NCBI GenBank assembly: GCA_044892525.1
Contig: CM097885.1
Span: 107,880,001 to 107,944,000, forward strand
Reading direction: 5' to 3'
DNA from: Schmidtea polychroa
Taxonomy: Eukaryota
Length of the DNA stretch: 64,000 nt
The notes beneath the pieces are model-generated. The model saw nothing but the letters and a program-made list of their open reading frames with translations. It did not search any database and had not been told where the DNA came from. Position numbers and translations under genes: made by a program. Each line of letters begins with the position of its first letter. The stretch's first letter is position 1. Below, piece by piece: positions 56,400 to 64,000 of this stretch.

Positions 56400-56675
56400 G
56401 TAAATTCGAAATTGGTGCAAAACTATCAAAAATGAAAATAGTTAGTCACACCAAGTAAGGACTTGAAAGTCAGCACACAGTGTCATATCGTTCCCAATGA
56501 AATGGAAAAGGTGAAAGGTTCCATAGAATTCTTTAAGCAGTCATGCCATATTCATATAACGCCACCAGAAGTTGGCAAAATGAGCTTCCAACAATTTTAC
56601 TTGGACTTCGCAATGTCATCTATGATGAAATAAATTTGACACCAAGTCAAAGTGTTTTTGGAATTAATGGACGTC
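56400..56675 (+). pseudogene. Ty3/gypsy integrase fragment, truncated by the Polinton insertion
   Basis: SYRSQ*NGKGERFHRIL*...WQNELPTILLGLRNV...LTPSQSVFG is a classic gypsy integrase C-terminal core; the similarity stops abruptly at 56675. Confidence 0.8.
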
Positions 56676-56786
56676 AGTAGATGGATTGGGCACCGCTGGC
56701 ACAGGGCACCGCTAGCACAGTACCCCCCCTCCCCCCCCGTCGGTAAGATTTTCAAAAATATTCTAAGTCTAAAAGTACATTTTTTT

Positions 56787-57446
56787 TTCAAGGTCAAATT
56801 TAAACAAAGACATATGACTCATCAAGGTCATTGAAACAAAGACCATGAGTCATCCTATGACTCATAAAATTTTTCAAGGTCATTTAAACAAAGACCATGA
56901 CTCATCCGATGACTCATCAAGGGCATTTTCAAGGTCATATGACTCATAGTATGACTCAGATGACCTTGAAAATTTTTTTCAAGGTGATATGACTCATCCT
57001 ATAACTCATCAAGGTCATTTTCAAGGTCATATGACTCATAGTATGACTCATCTGACCTTGAAAAATTTTTTTTCAAGGTCATATGACTCATCCTATGACT
57101 CATCAAGGTCATTGAAACAAAGACCATGACTCATAGTGTGACTCACCAAGGTCATTTTCAAGGTCATATGACTCATCAAGGTCATTTTCAAGGTCATATG
57201 ACTCATAGTATGACTCATTTGACCTTGGAAATTTTTTTTTCAAGGTCATATGACTCATCCTATGACTCGTCAAGGTCATTCTCAAGGTCATATGACTCAT
57301 CCGATGACTCATCAAAATTTTCAAGGTCATTTTCAAGGTCATCTGAGTCATCCTATGACTCATCAAGGTCATTTTCAAGGTCACATGACTCATCCAAGGT
57401 CATTCCCAAGGTCATATGAGTCATCGCGATGACTCATCAAGGTCAT
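56787..57446. repeat. Polinton subterminal tandem/inverted repeat array built from TGA(C/G)TCA and (T/C)CAAGGTCA
   Basis: About 25 copies of each motif by manual count, some inverted to form hairpins (TGACCTTGAAAAA..TTTTCAAGGTCA). Confidence 0.9.
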
Positions 57447-57601
57447 ATTATTATTTTTAAAAAATATTATTATTTTTATTATTATTTTTAAAAATATTAT
57501 TATTTTATTTTTAATTTTTTCAAAGTTCCCGCCAACGAAAATTAATAATCGATAGCTCATTTTAAAGCTCAATCCAAGACCTTTCGAATGAGCCATATAT
57601 C

Positions 57602-57670
<69 letters not shown>

Positions 57671-57795
57671 GTATTAATCTATATACACCGAGTCTATATA
57701 CTCTGAGTCTATCCGACAAAATATTTTGTCCCCCTATGGGTAATGCTCACAAGGGTACTGGTCACGCTCAACAAATCAACAAAACATACATTTAT

Positions 57796-58296
57796 TTAAA
57801 CAATAAAATAATGTAAAATTAACAAAGGTAAACTAAATATTGATGCACTTCTATTCGCAGCATTATTGTTAGAAATTGGTAACGTTGAATTGATTTTCAG
57901 ATATTCTATTGATCCTTTGATTGTTTGAATTTCTCTTAATAATAATTCAATCTTTTTTAACAAATAATCATGCTTCTTATCAATAATCTTCATATTCTTT
58001 TTATTTTCAGTAATAGAGTTATTGAAAACCTCAATATGATCAATCAATTTAATTTTTATATTTTGTATATATTCAAATGTTAGTTCATAACTGTTTTCTA
58101 AATTCTCCAATCTTTGAGATATTCTTTTTCCTGGATGCTTTGACCATTTTGGTTTATCGAGAATATATAAAATATCCATCAACTTGGCTGTATTCGGACA
58201 AACACATATTGATTTATTAAAAGACTCCACCGTTATTGTTGTATTGTGTGAGCACACACTCGTTATAATAATTAGCAATATGAATAGAGTTTTCAT
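57796..58296 (-). CDS. Polinton accessory protein: signal peptide, coiled coil, C-terminal hydrophobic (GPI-signal-like) tail, 166 aa
   Basis: MKTLFILLIIITSVCS signal peptide; five N-x-S/T sequons; heptad-rich middle; NNNAANRSASIFSLPLLILHYFIV end; TATAAAT upstream. Confidence 0.7.
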   Translation of the reverse strand: MKTLFILLIIITSVCSHNTTITVESFNKSICVCPNTAKLMDILYILDKPKWSKHPGKRISQRLENLENSYELTFEYIQNIKIKLIDHIEVFNNSITENKKNMKIIDKKHDYLLKKIELLLREIQTIKGSIEYLKINSTLPISNNNAANRSASIFSLPLLILHYFIV

Positions 58297-58321
58297 GGTG
58301 TATCAAATCAAAACCTTTCTT

Positions 58322-58375
58322 TTACATTTATAGTCTATCAACCAATCAAAATCATCCGGTATTAGTATAAATAAA
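58322..58375. promoter_or_regulatory. Divergent promoter with two TATA-like boxes around a CCAAT box
   Basis: TATAAAT on the minus strand at about 58326-58332, AACCAATCA at about 58340 and TATAAATA at about 58367, between the ATGs at 58296 and 58402. Confidence 0.5.
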
Positions 58376-58401
58376 ACATCATATTTTAAATTATTGTAAA
58401 A

Positions 58402-58922
58402 ATGTCTCAATTTATGGAAAATCTTTTAAGAGAACTCGTCAACAGGAATATTATGGAAAGCCTATGTTTCCTGGTCGATCGGACCGAAAAGATTATAGAA
58501 GGTAATCACATTGATTATGACGATGTGATCAATTCTGATTGTCTCGAAACCAAAAAATTCTATTTTAATAGAATTTTTAACTGTCTATGCGACGATCAGA
58601 TGAAGTGGACCCGAATACTAGTAGGGTTCGCTTATATGAAAATAATAATCCAAAGAAGTCTATGGGACTCAGAGCACTATTATCAGTGGTCTCAAGAAGT
58701 AATACTTTTATAATTTATATTTTATTAATATTTATTTTCTAGATAATCAAGTCAAAGTTTCAACCATGGATTGAAGCCAATGGCGGATGGGGAGTACTCA
58801 ATCAACTCGCCAGAAATGCAAAAGAAATAGACGATCAGAAAAGAAAATTTAAAAACTATGTAAAACTTGCAACAGGTGTTGCTATTTTGTATATTTTAAC
58901 CAGATTTTTAAATAAAAATTAA
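58402..58922 (+). CDS. Bcl-2 family protein, 158 aa, two exons (58402-58698, 58743-58922; 44-nt intron)
   Basis: BH1-like LCDDQMKWTRILVGFAY. Splicing GTAATA...TTCTAG (phase 0) gives WSQEIIKSKFQPWIEANGGW, aligning without gaps to Bcl-xL WMATYLNDHLEPWIQENGGW. C-terminal tail anchor LATGVAILYILTRFLNKN. Confidence 0.88.
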
Positions 58923-59005
58923 TATAGTTATTTTTGTTTGATTTTTAAATAAATTTTTAAATAACATTTTAAATAAATTTACAAACACTAATTAACTAAG
59001 ATTTA

Positions 59006-59383
59006 TTAATTAACACATTCGCAGTCGTCATCTCCACATTTCATTATATTTTCAACGACATGATCAATACAATCATTCGTAATATTATCTTTAGATTCAT
59101 CTTTAGGTTCCTCTATAGGTTCCTCTATAGGTTCATAGATTTCCTCTTGAGTTTCTTCCTCATCAATTTCTTGAGTTTCTTCCTCATCATCAAATCCTGT
59201 ATCTTGACTCTCAACTAACCAGCCGATATTTAAGGCATTTGTAATAGATAATATATCCTCCATTTTCACACCAGATATTTCTGCTAACTTTTCCAACAAA
59301 AAGTTGATTAAAAATTCTAAATAATAAATAATTCGGTAATTAATTAATTAATCATGTTAACCTTTTTCTACAGTCATTTTCAT
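59006..59383 (-). CDS. Small acidic Polinton protein, probably two exons (45-nt intron 59317-59361)
   Basis: The ORF lacks an ATG until GTTAAC...TTTAG is spliced, giving MKMTVEKEFLINFLLEKLAEISG...; Glu/Asp-rich repeats; Cys-containing C-terminus. Confidence 0.55.
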
Positions 59384-59511
59384 CACTTTAAAACTAAATT
59401 ATAAGTTTGTTTATAGATTTTCTTTGTTAAATTTGCATGTCATTTGCATTTATGTTGCAATTAATAAAGAGAAAAAAACAAATCTGACTAATACATTTAT
59501 TAAATATAACA

Positions 59512-59922
59512 TTAAAATATTTGTGAAAGTCTAGCAGACATAATTTTCCAAATAGGAGAATATACATCATTATTATCAACTTTATATCCCTGGATTGCAA
59601 TTGTTATATACCAATTTTCATTTTCTTTGAAAGCGATTTCATCAAAGGAATCATAAAATCTTGCATATTTATTGTTGAACCATGCATGTTGATTACACGA
59701 TAGATTCGAATCTATCCGTTTAAAAACATCATCAATAGTTTTGACATCAATCATTGAAAGCGTGCCGGATAAGAATTCAAATTTAGTTGGAATTAGCTTG
59801 ACTGGTGCAACCAATTTCATATTGATTTCTTCTTTCAAAAAATACATTTTGTAGTTGTGGAACATTTGAACTGGTTGTACCATTTCTTTAGGTTTTTCGG
59901 TGCTTGAAATTTTCTTGGTCAT
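59512..59922 (-). CDS. Polinton hypothetical protein, 136 aa (beta-rich C-terminus)
   Basis: ATG-initiated ORF with TATAAAAA about 40 nt upstream and CCAAT at about 59983; no confident family. Confidence 0.65.
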   Translation of the reverse strand: MTKKISSTEKPKEMVQPVQMFHNYKMYFLKEEINMKLVAPVKLIPTKFEFLSGTLSMIDVKTIDDVFKRIDSNLSCNQHAWFNNKYARFYDSFDEIAFKENENWYITIAIQGYKVDNNDVYSPIWKIMSARLSQIF

Positions 59923-60276
59923 CGTGAATAATGAATAAATTTAAATGTTACAGGGTTTTTATACCTTTGACTCATGCCTATCAACCAATCAGATTATAGC
60001 ATGTCTTTGTTTAAATTGCATTCAAAATGCATTGATGTTGCATTGTCACATGTTCTATTTACAGATTTATTATTAATGTTTAAATTATTACATGTTTTGA
60101 TATATGTACAGATTTATTATTAATATGTTTCATTATTATTAATGTTTTTACTATTATTACTATTCATATTTCTATTACTATTATTATTACTATTATTATT
60201 ATTACTATTATTATTTCAAATATAAAACACAATAAAACACAATAAAAAAGATAAAACACAATAAAAAATACATTTA

Positions 60277-60692
60277 TTAATAACCCAAATCTACAATCTG
60301 GGAGTAGTGAAACCTTCTCAGAGTTTTCACTAACTCCCATTCGACATATCGCCGATATCGATCGGCGCAACATGAGCATCCGATGATGCACTGGTACTCT
60401 GGCTCCATTTGTTTGATGGTTCTGTTAATCTTTATATCCCACAGAAACTGGTGAAATACATCCATGATTCGAATTTGAGTCGCATAGAATATCAGATCTG
60501 GAATGATCTCAGGTTCGCGATCCTTGATAATTTCAATAATTTGAGGATAATAATATTTTATCCTTTTTATCATAACTTCTAAATATTTCTCTAAAATAAT
60601 AAATAGTAAATAATGTGAAAAAAAAAAATTTTAAATTTACCGGAATCGTCGATATCTTTCATGAGGGTTGCAGAGCTTGGTAATTTGTACAT
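60277..60692 (-). CDS. Polinton hypothetical protein, 121 aa, two exons (50-nt intron 60591-60640), with a CxxGCSCC cluster
   Basis: Splicing GTAAAT...TTTTAG joins MYKLPSSATLMKDIDDS in frame to EKYLEVMIKRIKYY... Confidence 0.6.
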
Positions 60693-60765
60693 AGTGTTGA
60701 AAAAATGAATTCTAAACAAAAACCGTTTGTTTAAATCAATCAATAACCAATTAGAAATTAACCAA

Positions 60766-61203
60766 TTAGAAATCGACCAATGAAATTATCTCATTTCGAA
60801 CATTGTCAACAAATTCTCTATACTCCAAATTTCTCAACCCCAACATGACAACCTTTCCACTAGCAAACACGTTGACACATATAGGGTTATATTTTAATAG
60901 TCTTAGTGCCGGAAACAATTCCGGTTCAAACATACAATCACATTTTTTCGACATGTTATATAGATTGATACTATGTCCCATATCCATAGTAACGGTAATT
61001 GATTGGATTTTAATATTATTTATTCGATATTGTAATTTATTAATATCCAAAGGTTTCTTACATCCCATGATTCTGCATTTACCAGTCTTGAAAAATATTA
61101 TCGGATATTTCCCACTTCTATCGATAATTTGCTGGGGTTTCCCTGGTGGGAACCTCATATTCGATACATCAAAATTTCCTCGATAATTTATATTTGCTAA
61201 CAT
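60766..61203 (-). CDS. Compact TATA-binding-protein-like protein, 145 aa
   Basis: Both TBP repeats are recognisable: LANINYRGNF...IIFFKTGKCRIMG and IQSITVTMD...FEPELFPALRL...VNVFASGKVVMLG. Confidence 0.85.
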   Translation of the reverse strand: MLANINYRGNFDVSNMRFPPGKPQQIIDRSGKYPIIFFKTGKCRIMGCKKPLDINKLQYRINNIKIQSITVTMDMGHSINLYNMSKKCDCMFEPELFPALRLLKYNPICVNVFASGKVVMLGLRNLEYREFVDNVRNEIISLVDF

Positions 61204-61302
61204 TATTAAATCATTTATGAAAATTAGTCTTTATATACAAATTGAGCACGAGTTCATTAAATCATCGAATATAAACAAATACACATTTATAAAATATTTG
61301 AA

Positions 61303-61929
61303 ATGGAATTAAGAAATGATGCTGTATACCAAATCGTTGGTCCGAGTGGTAGTGGAAAAACATTATTTGTTTGTAAATTACTAAAATCCAATTTATTCAA
61401 ATCAAAATTCAACAGGATTTATTGGCATAGGGGTGCTGATGAAGAACATGGATTAACTCAATCAAGTTTCTGTAAATTAAAAAACATGAAAATAGTAAAG
61501 GGATTCGATAAAAACTGGTCCAGCCGATTAAAGAAAGGCGATGTCATTATTATCGATGATTTGTATCAAGAAGCTAATAAAGAAAAAGATTTTAATAATT
61601 TATTTACAAAGATTAGCAGACATGTCGGTGTAACAGTTATTTTCATAACTCAAAATCTATTTCATCAAGGTGGGGCACATCGAACACGTAATTTAAATGT
61701 ACAATATTTAGTCATTTTCAAGAATCCTAGAGATGCAACAGTGATTGATTTTCTTGCACGTCAAGCATACCCTAACAATCGTAATTTTCTTATCAGTGCA
61801 TTTCAAGATGCTACAAAAATACCTCATGGATATATATTTCTTGATTTCACACAACAATGTCCCGATGATTTACGTGTAAAAACAGATATTTTCAACCCAA
61901 AAGGTGCCATGGTTTATAAACAAAGTTGA
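61303..61929 (+). CDS. Polinton packaging ATPase (A32/FtsK-HerA-like), 208 aa
   Basis: Walker A GPSGSGKT, Walker B VIIIDD, and SRH, ITQ and FKNPRD motifs typical of Polinton ATPases. Confidence 0.92.
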   Translation: MELRNDAVYQIVGPSGSGKTLFVCKLLKSNLFKSKFNRIYWHRGADEEHGLTQSSFCKLKNMKIVKGFDKNWSSRLKKGDVIIIDDLYQEANKEKDFNNLFTKISRHVGVTVIFITQNLFHQGGAHRTRNLNVQYLVIFKNPRDATVIDFLARQAYPNNRNFLISAFQDATKIPHGYIFLDFTQQCPDDLRVKTDIFNPKGAMVYKQS

Positions 61930-61947
61930 AAACCTCTATGAATAATA

Positions 61948-62481
61948 ATGTTTCTAAAAGCAAGGGTGAAAAATATTAGGAAATTAAGAAAAGGTATTAG
62001 AAAGACTATTAAAGTTCCAAAGGTTCCACCAACAACTAGTTATACACCATCTAAAAAACTTGTAACTGAAAATTTCTCTGCAATGAATCTTATTTCGAAA
62101 AATCCTAAACCTAAACGTAAAACCCGTAAAACCCGTAAAACCGGTAAAAAAGTAGTTAAAAATCATCGCAGTTTTCCATTTTTTAATGCATTGTTAAAGG
62201 CTCCGAGTATGAAAAGAATGAATATATTGCAATCATTCCCAAATTTTGTTGTCGATGATTTACTCAATATTATACTTAAAGTAGTCAAAGGCAAAATTAA
62301 AATCAGTAAATCAAAAAAGCATTTATTGAGCAAACATAGGAAACCTTTATTATCTTTAGTAAATAATAAAAATCGTAAGCAAATGAGGAAAATTATATAT
62401 AAACAACAAGGTGGATTTATTGGTGCCTTGATACCTCTGGCATTATCATTATTAGGTGGAGTTGTAGGAAATCAATCATAA
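61948..62481 (+). CDS. Basic putative virion core protein with an adenovirus pX-like C-terminus, 177 aa
   Basis: Very Lys/Arg-rich; ends QQGG-FIGALIPLALSLLGG, resembling adenovirus pX MRGG-ILPLLIPLIAAAIG (protease site plus hydrophobic peptide). Confidence 0.7.
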   Translation: MFLKARVKNIRKLRKGIRKTIKVPKVPPTTSYTPSKKLVTENFSAMNLISKNPKPKRKTRKTRKTGKKVVKNHRSFPFFNALLKAPSMKRMNILQSFPNFVVDDLLNIILKVVKGKIKISKSKKHLLSKHRKPLLSLVNNKNRKQMRKIIYKQQGGFIGALIPLALSLLGGVVGNQS

Positions 62482-62484
62482 ACA

Positions 62485-62712
62485 ATGGGTGCTAATCCTT
62501 CATTGCCCGACATTAAATTTAATTTTAAATCTTCTTGTTGTAATGGAGAAGATTTGGACGAACCCAGAAGACGAAGCCGGTTTCGGTGGAGTGGCAAAAT
62601 TAAACAAAAGAGTTCCGAATTCGAAAAAAGAAACCCAGAAGTGGTTATCAGATCAGCTTGCGTACAGTTTGAACAAACCAATGCGGAAAAGATTTCCAAC
62701 AAGAGCGTATAA
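62485..62712 (+). CDS. Candidate small ORF with an N-myristoylation signal, overlapping the integrase start in another frame, 75 aa
   Basis: ACAATGG start context; MGANPS (MGxxxS), a CC pair and a basic cluster; fills the gap between the core-protein stop and the integrase ATG. Confidence 0.45.
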   Translation: MGANPSLPDIKFNFKSSCCNGEDLDEPRRRSRFRWSGKIKQKSSEFEKRNPEVVIRSACVQFEQTNAEKISNKSV

Positions 62713-62930
62713 AACATTTGGTATTGACGATTTATGGCAAATGGATTTGATGGAGATGATACCATATTCGAAAATTAACAATGGGAATAAATATATTTTA
62801 ACATGTATTAATGTATACAGCAGGTTTGCACGAGCAATACCAGTCAAGGCAAAATCTGCAGAAGAAATGTCCAAGGCAATTAATATTTTATTTAAAGATG
62901 GACATCCTAATAATTTGCAAACAGATTTAG

Positions 62931-63001
<71 letters not shown>

Positions 63002-63631
63002 TTAGGTAAAGAATTCTACAATAGCAAAGTTAAGCAAATCCTCGATAAACTGAAAATAAATCACTACTCGGTACATTCTCAATACAAAGCTGCCCATGTT
63101 GAAAGATTTAATCGAACATTGAGAGATAGATTAAAGAAATTGTTCGTGCATCAAGGTAATAAAAAATGGGTAAATGCTTTACCGAAAATAATAACAAGTT
63201 ATAATCATTCATCACATCGAGGACTGAATGGATTGAGACCGGTTGATATTACATCAAAAACACCATTATCTAAAAAATCTGTAAAAATTGCAAAACCTAA
63301 ATATAAAGTCGGTGACCATGTTAGAATTAGTAAAATTAGTGCATCACCATTTATTAAAAATTTTGATACAAATTGGAGTGATGAAGTCTTTGTAATTTCA
63401 AAAATAAATACTAAACAGAATCCTGTAATGTATGTCATCAAAGACAATGATAATAATATTGTACAGGGGAAATTTTATGAGCAGAAATTACAAGTCATTC
63501 CTCCCCCAAAAGTATTTAGAATTCAAAAAATATTGAAAACTAAAAAGGTCGGTAAGGATAAACAATACTATATCAAATGGCACGGTTATCAAAACCCGTC
63601 ATGGATATCGTCAAAAGACCTAGTAAAATGA
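62543..63631 (+). CDS. Polinton retroviral-type DDE integrase with a C-terminal chromodomain; 337 aa after removing the 75-nt intron 62931-63005
   Basis: WQMD, QTDLG/KEF and VERFNRTL catalytic motifs; chromo-like FRIQKIL...YYIKWHGY...SW. Likely start ATG is 62543 (MEKIW). Confidence 0.92.
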
Positions 63632-64000
63632 ATTTTTATATTATTTTACCTAGCAATAGCTGTCCACTTATTCATCCAGATAATAAAGCCAGCAAATTCA
63701 GGGTCAATCTTCAAAATCCGATATATTTGGATAATAGCTGGGAAGTTGCTCTGTTGGATTTTACATTTGTATACCAAGCCTTTCCATTTTATAGTAAGGC
63801 TAAAATTGGATACAAAAAGAATGAGTGGCCGGATAGATTATTGTCTATGATCATTGATAATGCAGATGATGAAGTTCGGTTGTCTAACTCAACTGATCCA
63901 GCTGTGAAAATGTATATTAACCATTCATATATAGTAGTTGAATGTAAACATTATCCTTTTACTGTAAAATTTGATAGTTTGGAAATGGCAAAACGATTGG
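63628..64000 (+). CDS. Polinton minor capsid protein (penton), N-terminal part; runs off the window
   Basis: ATGA overlap with the integrase stop; MNFYIILPSNS...HPDN..SKFRVNL..PIYL..SWEVAL is the typical Polinton penton N-terminus; frame open to the window end. Confidence 0.85.
   Translation, partial: MNFYIILPSNSCPLIHPDNKASKFRVNLQNPIYLDNSWEVALLDFTFVYQAFPFYSKAKIGYKKNEWPDRLLSMIIDNADDEVRLSNSTDPAVKMYINHSYIVVECKHYPFTVKFDSLEMAKRL

Follow-up and report, generated by a model that had tools for sequence, protein, structure and literature searches.

A compact TBP-fold protein and a candidate late-gene box in a Polinton family of Schmidtea polychroa

We analyzed a 64,000-nucleotide stretch of the Schmidtea polychroa genome (assembly GCA_044892525.1, contig CM097885.1, positions 107,880,001 to 107,944,000 of the forward strand; hereafter "the window"), which holds at its right end the left arm of a Polinton. 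This element encodes a compact protein with a TATA-binding protein fold (TBP; 60766..61203, minus strand), and the sequence YATAAACA stands upstream of packaging, integrase and putative capsid genes. Judging from sequence, we consider it probable that the element follows a two-step gene programme, in which the viral TBP reads YATAAACA in front of the ATPase, integrase and putative capsid genes. Factors of the host's RNA polymerase II (Pol II) would first transcribe the genes for a Bcl-2-family protein, ORF166, a predicted single-stranded DNA-binding protein (SSB), ORF121 and the compact TBP from TATA/CCAAT promoters, as the promoter elements upstream of these genes suggest. The covariation of box and TBP type, together with the residues of the protein, suggests that the compact TBP would then bind YATAAACA and turn on the packaging, integrase and capsid genes, and its retained acidic stirrup could serve to recruit the TFIIB and Pol II of the host. 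Having lost the N-lobe helices, it may be free from host TBP regulators. By its family, Bcl-2 would delay the death of the host cell, and by its fold, the SSB would serve replication by PolB. An earlier, sequence-only reading had likened the element to a DNA virus with a transcription factor of its own, and this likeness stands: the TBP belongs to a conserved Polinton-borne family, and a matching box marks packaging and putative capsid genes.

A Polinton-borne family of compact TBPs

The compact TBP is 145 amino acids (aa) long and lies head-to-head with the packaging ATPase. We found 109 relatives of similar length, at 37–97% identity. Polinton core genes accompany TBP in 37 of 81 related loci, and in 13 of the 16 that exceed 5 kb; the TBP gene can precede the ATPase or follow either the protease or PolB. 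Within the genome, every sampled relative of the ATPase (15/15) came with matches to both TBP and SSB. Searches with the compact-TBP alignment gave no match in prokaryote genomes and a single distant giant-virus TBP in IMG/VR, where scans with the ATPase and with major capsid protein (MCP) and ATPase alignments gave no match. The nearest 144-aa Atlas cluster bears an "Archaea" label, which was disregarded because a single member underlies it. A 100/99 branch in a 40-row tree (midpoint root, long branches) separated 29 Polinton TBPs from six host and five canonical TBPs. Recent capture of host TBP was rejected on the basis of this branch.

The AF2 model of the protein (pLDDT 96) keeps the two-repeat saddle and has no N-lobe helix of four or more residues, the segments there being, at the median, 10 and 13 residues shorter than canonical ones. 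Among the matches listed by Foldseek, the 44 from the PDB with E ≤ 0.001 were all TBPs. The compact TBP shares with cellular TBPs and their paralogues (PF00352) the two-lobed saddle fold, the EPELFP stirrup and three of four phenylalanines, but it is about 35 residues shorter, lacks both N-lobe helices, is 21–26% identical to solved TBPs and carries polar substitutions that are invariant in its family. The TFIIB-binding acidic stirrup is kept (E93 in 93 of 96 rows, E95 in 95 of 96). At the DNA-facing positions, N6, R44, R101, C109 and N111 are near-invariant. By alignment, and with a yeast numbering that we partly presume, the last three correspond to yeast I194, V203 and L205; R stands at the first of these positions in 94 of 96 rows, and the second and third are C and N in all 96. 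The same three residues are changed in the altered-specificity mutant TBPm3, and it is on the 3' half of the box that the N-lobe makes its contacts (PMC1636458). Both the TBP fold and the family-wide residue changes are direct observations. A complex prediction that paired the compact TBP with a 304-aa host TFIIB paralogue was uninformative, at a score of 0.00.

Other genes were seen beside TBP in related elements. Some TBP-carrying Polintons (L040, L043, L045, L049 and L053) have a conserved open reading frame (ORF) between protease and TBP, which we take to be DEDD-like and which has no Pfam match. Further ones (L064–L089) carry a PLA2-like ORF and a KilA-N gene.

A box upstream of packaging, integrase and putative capsid genes

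On the plus strand of the window, ATAAACA precedes the A32-like packaging ATPase (box at 61271..61277, 32 nt upstream; gene at 61303..61929, PF04665), the basic protein ORF177 (61916..61922, inside the 3' end of the ATPase gene and 32 nt before ORF177 at 61948..62481), a predicted 75-aa ORF (62399..62405, 86 nt upstream of 62485-62712), the integrase (62478..62484, 65 nt upstream) and the putative minor capsid gene (63558..63564, 70 nt upstream). On the minus strand it stands at 59408..59414, 31 nt before the start of an acidic ORF. Nine of the ten ATAAACA sites in the element lie 31–100 nt before a start on the same strand, and such windows make up 3.8% of strand positions. The terminal inverted repeat (TIR) contains no ATAAACA box.

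The same arrangement recurs in related loci, where the box was found in 49 of 56 windows upstream of ATPase, minor capsid, pX and MCP genes, with none antisense; upstream of TBP or SSB the count was 2 of 88. ATAAAC[A/G] precedes all 26 ATPases, and the distance from box to start has a minimum of about 30 nt. Within the last 130 nt of core genes, the box is used at 44 of 50 coding-permissive sites, compared to 15.5 expected from codon usage. In PolB, box use is 3 against 4.1 expected. Position, strand and codon-level conservation of the box were all observed directly. A poly(A) or terminator role was rejected, because the box also precedes the head-to-head ATPase.

Box type and TBP type

Polintons that lack the compact TBP provide natural controls. 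Neither TBP nor SSB gave a match in any of the four complete copies of a 14.7-kb family in this genome, and the box is missing before eight of its nine genes. Two partial contigs with no visible TBP have a canonical TATAWAW 39–52 nt before ATPase, integrase or minor capsid genes. A second lineage (L209:8684-9906 and L211:13597-14797) encodes a full-size and very different TBP adjoining a TFIIB gene, and these contigs with their relatives L207 and L208 have TATTTAA 43–72 nt before three of three ATPases and two of two major capsid genes. In this small sample of sequences, box type follows TBP type. We are evenly divided over a broader proposal, namely that Polintons acquired basal factors of their own at least twice, as compact TBP with YATAAACA and as TBP plus TFIIB with TATTTAA, and that each set would read a private late box in a herpesvirus-like early/late switch that needs no RNA polymerase of its own.

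Several points weigh against a viral TBP that reads this box. The motif was found post hoc, by reading upstream regions, and the loci are related, such that 25 ATPases form 20 clusters when the identity threshold is 90%, eight when it is 80% and two when it is 60%, and the trials are not independent. In the window element the protease has no box, the tenth ATAAACA site lies within the PolB coding sequence, and gene bodies over-use the box somewhat (32 of 101 sites vs 19.8 expected). ATAAACA is at the same time a site of the forkhead type and differs little from an ordinary TATA box. The TBP-less controls consist of one in-genome family and two partial contigs; in the former, an ATAAACA heptamer lies 9 nt upstream of the point where the ATPase starts. 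One ATAAACR is found 95 nt upstream of the L207 ATPase, and both L207 and L208 show TATTTAA with no TBP gene in view. As for the protein itself, the first of the four TBP phenylalanines, by a numbering that we presume, appears lost, and two close pairs gave ratios of non-synonymous to synonymous substitution (dN/dS) near 1 for TBP, on 4 and 12 differences.

Some observations on the control families stand on their own. The 14.7-kb family (L173–L175; G000:C3 ~24,692,760-24,707,520) is high-copy, and most of its genes start right behind a short A-rich leader (…AAA-ATG); one copy is inserted between the SSB and TBP of another family (L185–L187). The second TBP-plus-TFIIB lineage is filed inside bacterial metagenome-assembled genomes. 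An intronless TFIIB-like gene of about 304 aa is present in at least 13 clustered copies (L164:3572-4486, L165:4182-5096; G000:C3 38.2–39.1 Mb, C1 23.8–24.2 Mb), which together with at least six host TBP-like loci form an expanded basal-factor set.

The element and its copies

The full element was recovered, including its right TIR. It starts at 56676 (AGTAGATGG) and, in window numbering continued past the window, ends at 75489, giving a length of 18,814 bp. A 6-bp target-site duplication (56670..56675) has its second copy following the right terminus at 75489, and 6-bp duplications also flank all six further copies that have both ends. The left TIR (56676..58222) is about 1.55 kb long and the right one about 1.7 kb, 88% alike with gaps, and both show the AG termini of Polinton/Maverick elements. 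Starting from 4,174 candidates, 111 of 150 scored matches encode an identical TBP. The element belongs to a young, large and recently multiplied Polinton family with more than 100 near-identical copies in the genome. Planarian Polintons are reported to be silenced by PIWI-interacting RNA and de-silenced upon differentiation (PMC8532177).

Past the left arm, the observed gene order is ATPase, basic ORF, integrase, putative minor capsid, pX-like, major capsid, adenain-type protease, an intron-rich acidic gene and PolB. ORF177 is conserved among related elements and has no Pfam match. The rve integrase (62543..63631, plus strand, intron 62931-63005) has a chromo-like end, and its match to PF00665 (E 1e-5) is below the curated cut-off. 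The putative minor capsid gene begins at 63628 on the plus strand and runs past the end of the window (63628..64000). The capsid and pX labels are presumptive and follow gene position; the putative capsid ORFs, of 407 and 334 aa, are conserved in related elements and have no Pfam match. The protease matches PF00770. PolB is a 1130-aa frame in whose translation we read what we take to be PolB motifs; Pfam gave Endonuclease_7 only, with no match to PF03175 at E ≤ 0.01. The frame is broken near its 5' end in the window copy, at a poly-A run, and is continuous in five of eight other copies. By the definition of PMC8502044, the lack of a PF03175 match, taken by itself, would point to the Beta adintovirus class. 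The acidic gene between protease and PolB (approximately 67110-68000, window numbering continued) has several short introns, and ATAAACA lies 77 nt before its predicted start.

Genes of the left arm

All six left-arm ORFs are present and open in the window, and short introns of 44, 45 and 50 nt restore the open frames of Bcl-2, the acidic ORF and ORF121, respectively; the sequence-only reading was right on both counts. Each of the three introns has GT..AG ends in 40 of 40 copies, which were picked by TBP/ATPase similarity, a choice that favours intact ones. Among the matches listed for contigs of four runs (three guessed to be RNA) over 57700-62900, no joint was seen at the predicted introns, and contigs of this kind cannot show absence. 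The promoter elements noticed earlier are also there: TATA and/or CCAAT elements (TATAAA(A/T) or TATATAA) precede five genes, those for Bcl-2, ORF166, SSB, ORF121 and TBP. The acidic ORF has the late-type box in place of a canonical TATA/CCAAT promoter, and therefore the left arm is not uniformly "early". We computed dN/dS by the Nei-Gojobori method with a transition weight of 3. At moderate divergence, the values are well below 1 for Bcl-2, ORF121, TBP and SSB.

The Bcl-2-family gene (58402..58922, plus strand; exons 58402-58698 and 58743-58922) encodes 158 aa; motifs resembling BH1 and BH2 are present, and the protein ends in a hydrophobic tail. Exon 1 matches PF00452 at E 0.01, and the best PDB matches of exon 2 are to Bcl-xL, weakly (E 0.07). 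A relative without the intron (L150) passes the Pfam cut-off, and a distant family carries it beside SSB and TBP. Values of dN/dS between 0.20 and 0.44 in nine unsaturated pairs with the window copy indicate purifying selection. Thirteen apparent stops were rejected as damage; in the two that were checked, the protein ends two residues earlier, past the anchor. One of five compared host Bcl-2 proteins, the nearest relative within the genome, matches both viral forms (E 4e-10 and 9e-27), and its gene is single-copy with no Polinton gene nearby. For this reason, capture from the host lineage is likely. Protein searches returned one near-identical protein for Bcl-2 exon 1 and two for ORF166.

ORF166 (57796..58296, minus strand) has hydrophobic N- and C-termini, five N-glycosylation sequons and a predicted coiled coil, and its product is predicted to be secreted or GPI-anchored. 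The last 427 of its 501 nt (the 3' part) lie inside the TIR. Among the 40 copies it is absent in 7 and open in 30. Six further pairs gave dN/dS of 0.39–0.62 (p 0.005–0.06 in five, 0.49 in one); in close pairs, constraint is not significant for ORF166 or for the acidic ORF. By these measures ORF166 appears to be an optional and weakly constrained surface protein. The 105-bp spacer between it and Bcl-2 (58297..58401) contains a single CCAAT box and, 36 nt upstream of each of the two starts, a TATAAAT, and is predicted to be a shared early promoter of the two head-to-head genes.

The acidic protein (59006..59383, minus strand, intron 59317-59361) has 110 aa, and its constraint is significant in some pairs only. 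ORF121 (60277..60692, minus strand, intron 60591-60640) contains cysteines and has three CCAAT boxes upstream, at 60747-60783; its dN/dS of 0.08–0.53 indicates purifying selection, and no Pfam match or family was found. Three small ORFs had been described as orphans. This description still fits ORF121, but not ORF136 (59512..59922, minus strand), whose relatives adjoin TBP in 21 of 81 related loci and whose 136-aa product is modelled (pLDDT 90) with an OB fold of the T7 gp2.5/Enc34 type and a capping helix. Its top four structural matches are phage or African swine fever virus (ASFV) SSB-type chains (Z 6.9–7.2, rmsd 2.8–4.7, 101–123 residues aligned), and the next match has Z 5.4. These are the T7 gp2.5, Enc34 and ASFV CP312R SSBs, from which ORF136 differs in that Z stays below 8 and identity is 4–12%. 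An Atlas search with ORF136 gave no usable match. The model predicts a T7-type SSB that would help in DNA replication. Its promoter (59957..59991, minus strand) combines TATAAAA, TGAGTCA and a CCAAT box.

Neighbouring genes of the arm differ in history. In one pair, synonymous divergence is 0.26 for Bcl-2, 0.37 for ORF121 and 0.04 for TBP, several-fold differences that point to gene-by-gene swapping. We used tblastn on 35 more distant in-genome fragments (8–10 kb each, chosen by SSB or ATPase) and found TBP in 33, SSB in 32 and any Bcl-2 in 24; the counts were 21 for ORF121, 20 for the acidic ORF and 10 for ORF166. Because of these counts and divergence differences, we read the left arm as a stable TBP-SSB core with exchangeable extras. 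Mosaic copies (L134–L137 and L144) were also seen, with an ATPase 96% identical to that of the window, a TBP 93% identical in one and 61–64% in others, and Bcl-2 exon 1 at 61–64%; they point to gene swaps between families.

Alternative explanations

The arm had been read as a single early module for manipulating the host, its genes jointly induced by stress through an enhancer in the left arm, an idea that now seems rather unlikely. Purifying selection on Bcl-2 and ORF121, the TATA/CCAAT promoters and a dense motif array all speak for it. The array is real: a subterminal tract within the TIR (56790..57436) holds 25 TGASTCA and 20 TCAAGGTCA sites, which in 765 bp compares with shuffle means of 0.17 and 0.02, and we take these to be AP-1-type and NR5A/ERR-type sites, respectively. 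However, it is equally dense at the right end of the element and thus sits in both TIRs, which led us to reject a left-arm-only enhancer. Its length varies among copies, with 1–43 sites per fetched copy, partly because some fetches miss the terminus. The array is probably either a host-factor enhancer, which its AP-1/nuclear receptor consensus matches make plausible, or, just as possible, a terminus-binding site. A single module also fits poorly with the patchy occurrence of ORF166 described above, the late box of the acidic ORF, the gene-by-gene swapping and a predicted replication-type SSB, and Bcl-2, ORF121, the acidic ORF and ORF166 have no match in 80 metagenome loci (short contigs). What survives of host manipulation is Bcl-2, which is under selection and likely host-derived.

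We also consider it unlikely that the box, as a genuine late/core promoter element, is read by a host factor such as a forkhead protein or a host TBP paralogue, the viral TBP doing other work, for example dampening the host's transcription by competition for its TFIIB. The forkhead consensus is compatible with ATAAACA, and the host has the several TBP-like loci noted above. Yet the box is one-stranded (49 sense, 0 antisense), keeps its minimum distance from the start, and takes the Fox-preferred form GTAAACA in only 3 of 56 core-gene windows. Moreover, it persists across elements on contigs with a GC content of 0.27–0.47 and changes with the TBP type.

It is quite improbable, in our judgement, that the compact TBP acts in replication or packaging by bending AT-rich termini with the neighbouring SSB, the box being unrelated. 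The frequent adjacency of SSB and TBP and the loss of the N-lobe helices are consistent with such a role, but the TFIIB-binding acidic residues are nearly invariant, a TFIIB gene accompanies the TBP of the second lineage, and the box stands before genes and is absent from the TIR. That the accessory genes are neutral passengers, intact only through recent family expansion, is hardly credible, even with identical TBPs in most scored copies and no significant constraint on ORF166 and the acidic ORF in close pairs: the TBP family is conserved over many lineages, the further ORF166 pairs fall below 1, and for TBP, Bcl-2, SSB and ORF121 the dN/dS values largely refute it.

Relation to known systems

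The element shares with adintoviruses and Polintons the TIRs, 6-bp target duplication, PolB, rve integrase, packaging ATPase, adenain-type protease and putative capsid genes (PMC8502044). Starrett et al. (2021, PMC8502044) have already reported Bcl2 and IAP homologues in adintoviruses, with an "SSDBP" label in Suppl. Fig. S2, and a BCL2-like motif is known from planarian Burro retroelements (PMC6431247). By contrast, "TBP" occurs in PMC8502044 only as a legend label, in a figure on MELD viruses from non-animal datasets; the readable animal maps carry no TBP label and the accessible text does not contain "promoter". VLTF3 is known in some polintoviruses. We found neither a TBP family of animal Polintons nor its box described in the literature, Repbase, subscription papers and some supplements lying outside the search, and there is no mention of TATA or TBP in the accessible portions of 10.1101/2023.08.22.554363, PMC11161782, 10.64898/2026.10.13.758929, 10.64898/2026.06.19.733378 and PMC11131425. 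The Polinton type and Bcl-2 in such elements were already known, and the compact TBP family of animal Polintons and its box are apparently new.

The closest functional parallel is ORF24 of Kaposi's sarcoma-associated herpesvirus, one of the TBP mimics of beta- and gammaherpesviruses. Both are viral TBP folds with a more polar DNA face, and in both systems a non-canonical TATA-like box (TATTWAA for ORF24) precedes late genes, presumed late in the Polinton, and early promoters are ordinary (10.1101/2025.08.25.672222). ORF24 is multidomain, with an N-terminal part that makes direct contact with Pol II and an additional C-terminal part, depends on five partner proteins and is without the acids that bind TFIIB (10.1101/2025.08.25.672222), whereas the compact TBP is a bare 145-aa core whose ORF is fully covered by the TBP fold, keeps those acids and has no viral transcriptional activator (vTA) partners that we could see. 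By analogy, the compact TBP likely works as ORF24 does on TATTWAA, yet is not a member of the ORF24 family. The TBP-like proteins of large nucleocytoplasmic DNA viruses have the same fold (BFVD matches), but are 7–20% identical and mostly larger. Those viruses carry their own RNA polymerase; no RNA polymerase gene was seen in this Polinton.

The proposed programme bears on the expression of the closely spaced packaging and capsid genes of Polintons, and on whether these elements have a true viral phase. If it is correct, the compact TBP would be a minimal natural TBP of changed specificity, substituted at the same three positions as the laboratory mutant TBPm3, and would parallel, independently, the late transcription of herpesviruses. 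The early/late switch of the broader proposal would account for the silence of capsid genes in most tissues and would indicate the time of particle formation. With the help of box and TBP type, Polintons could be sorted into self-sufficient and dependent kinds, and a named factor with a 7–8-nt box makes a model of late-gene expression testable.

Neighbouring sequences

Two further ORFs were seen outside the element. A 185-aa C3HC4 RING gene (L166:801-1358), downstream of PolB in another Polinton, resembles the end of IAP. To the right of the element, at ~81424-82035 on the minus strand, an unrelated ORF begins with a hydrophobic stretch, contains a CxC motif and ends in a transmembrane-like segment, a layout that resembles that of ORF166.

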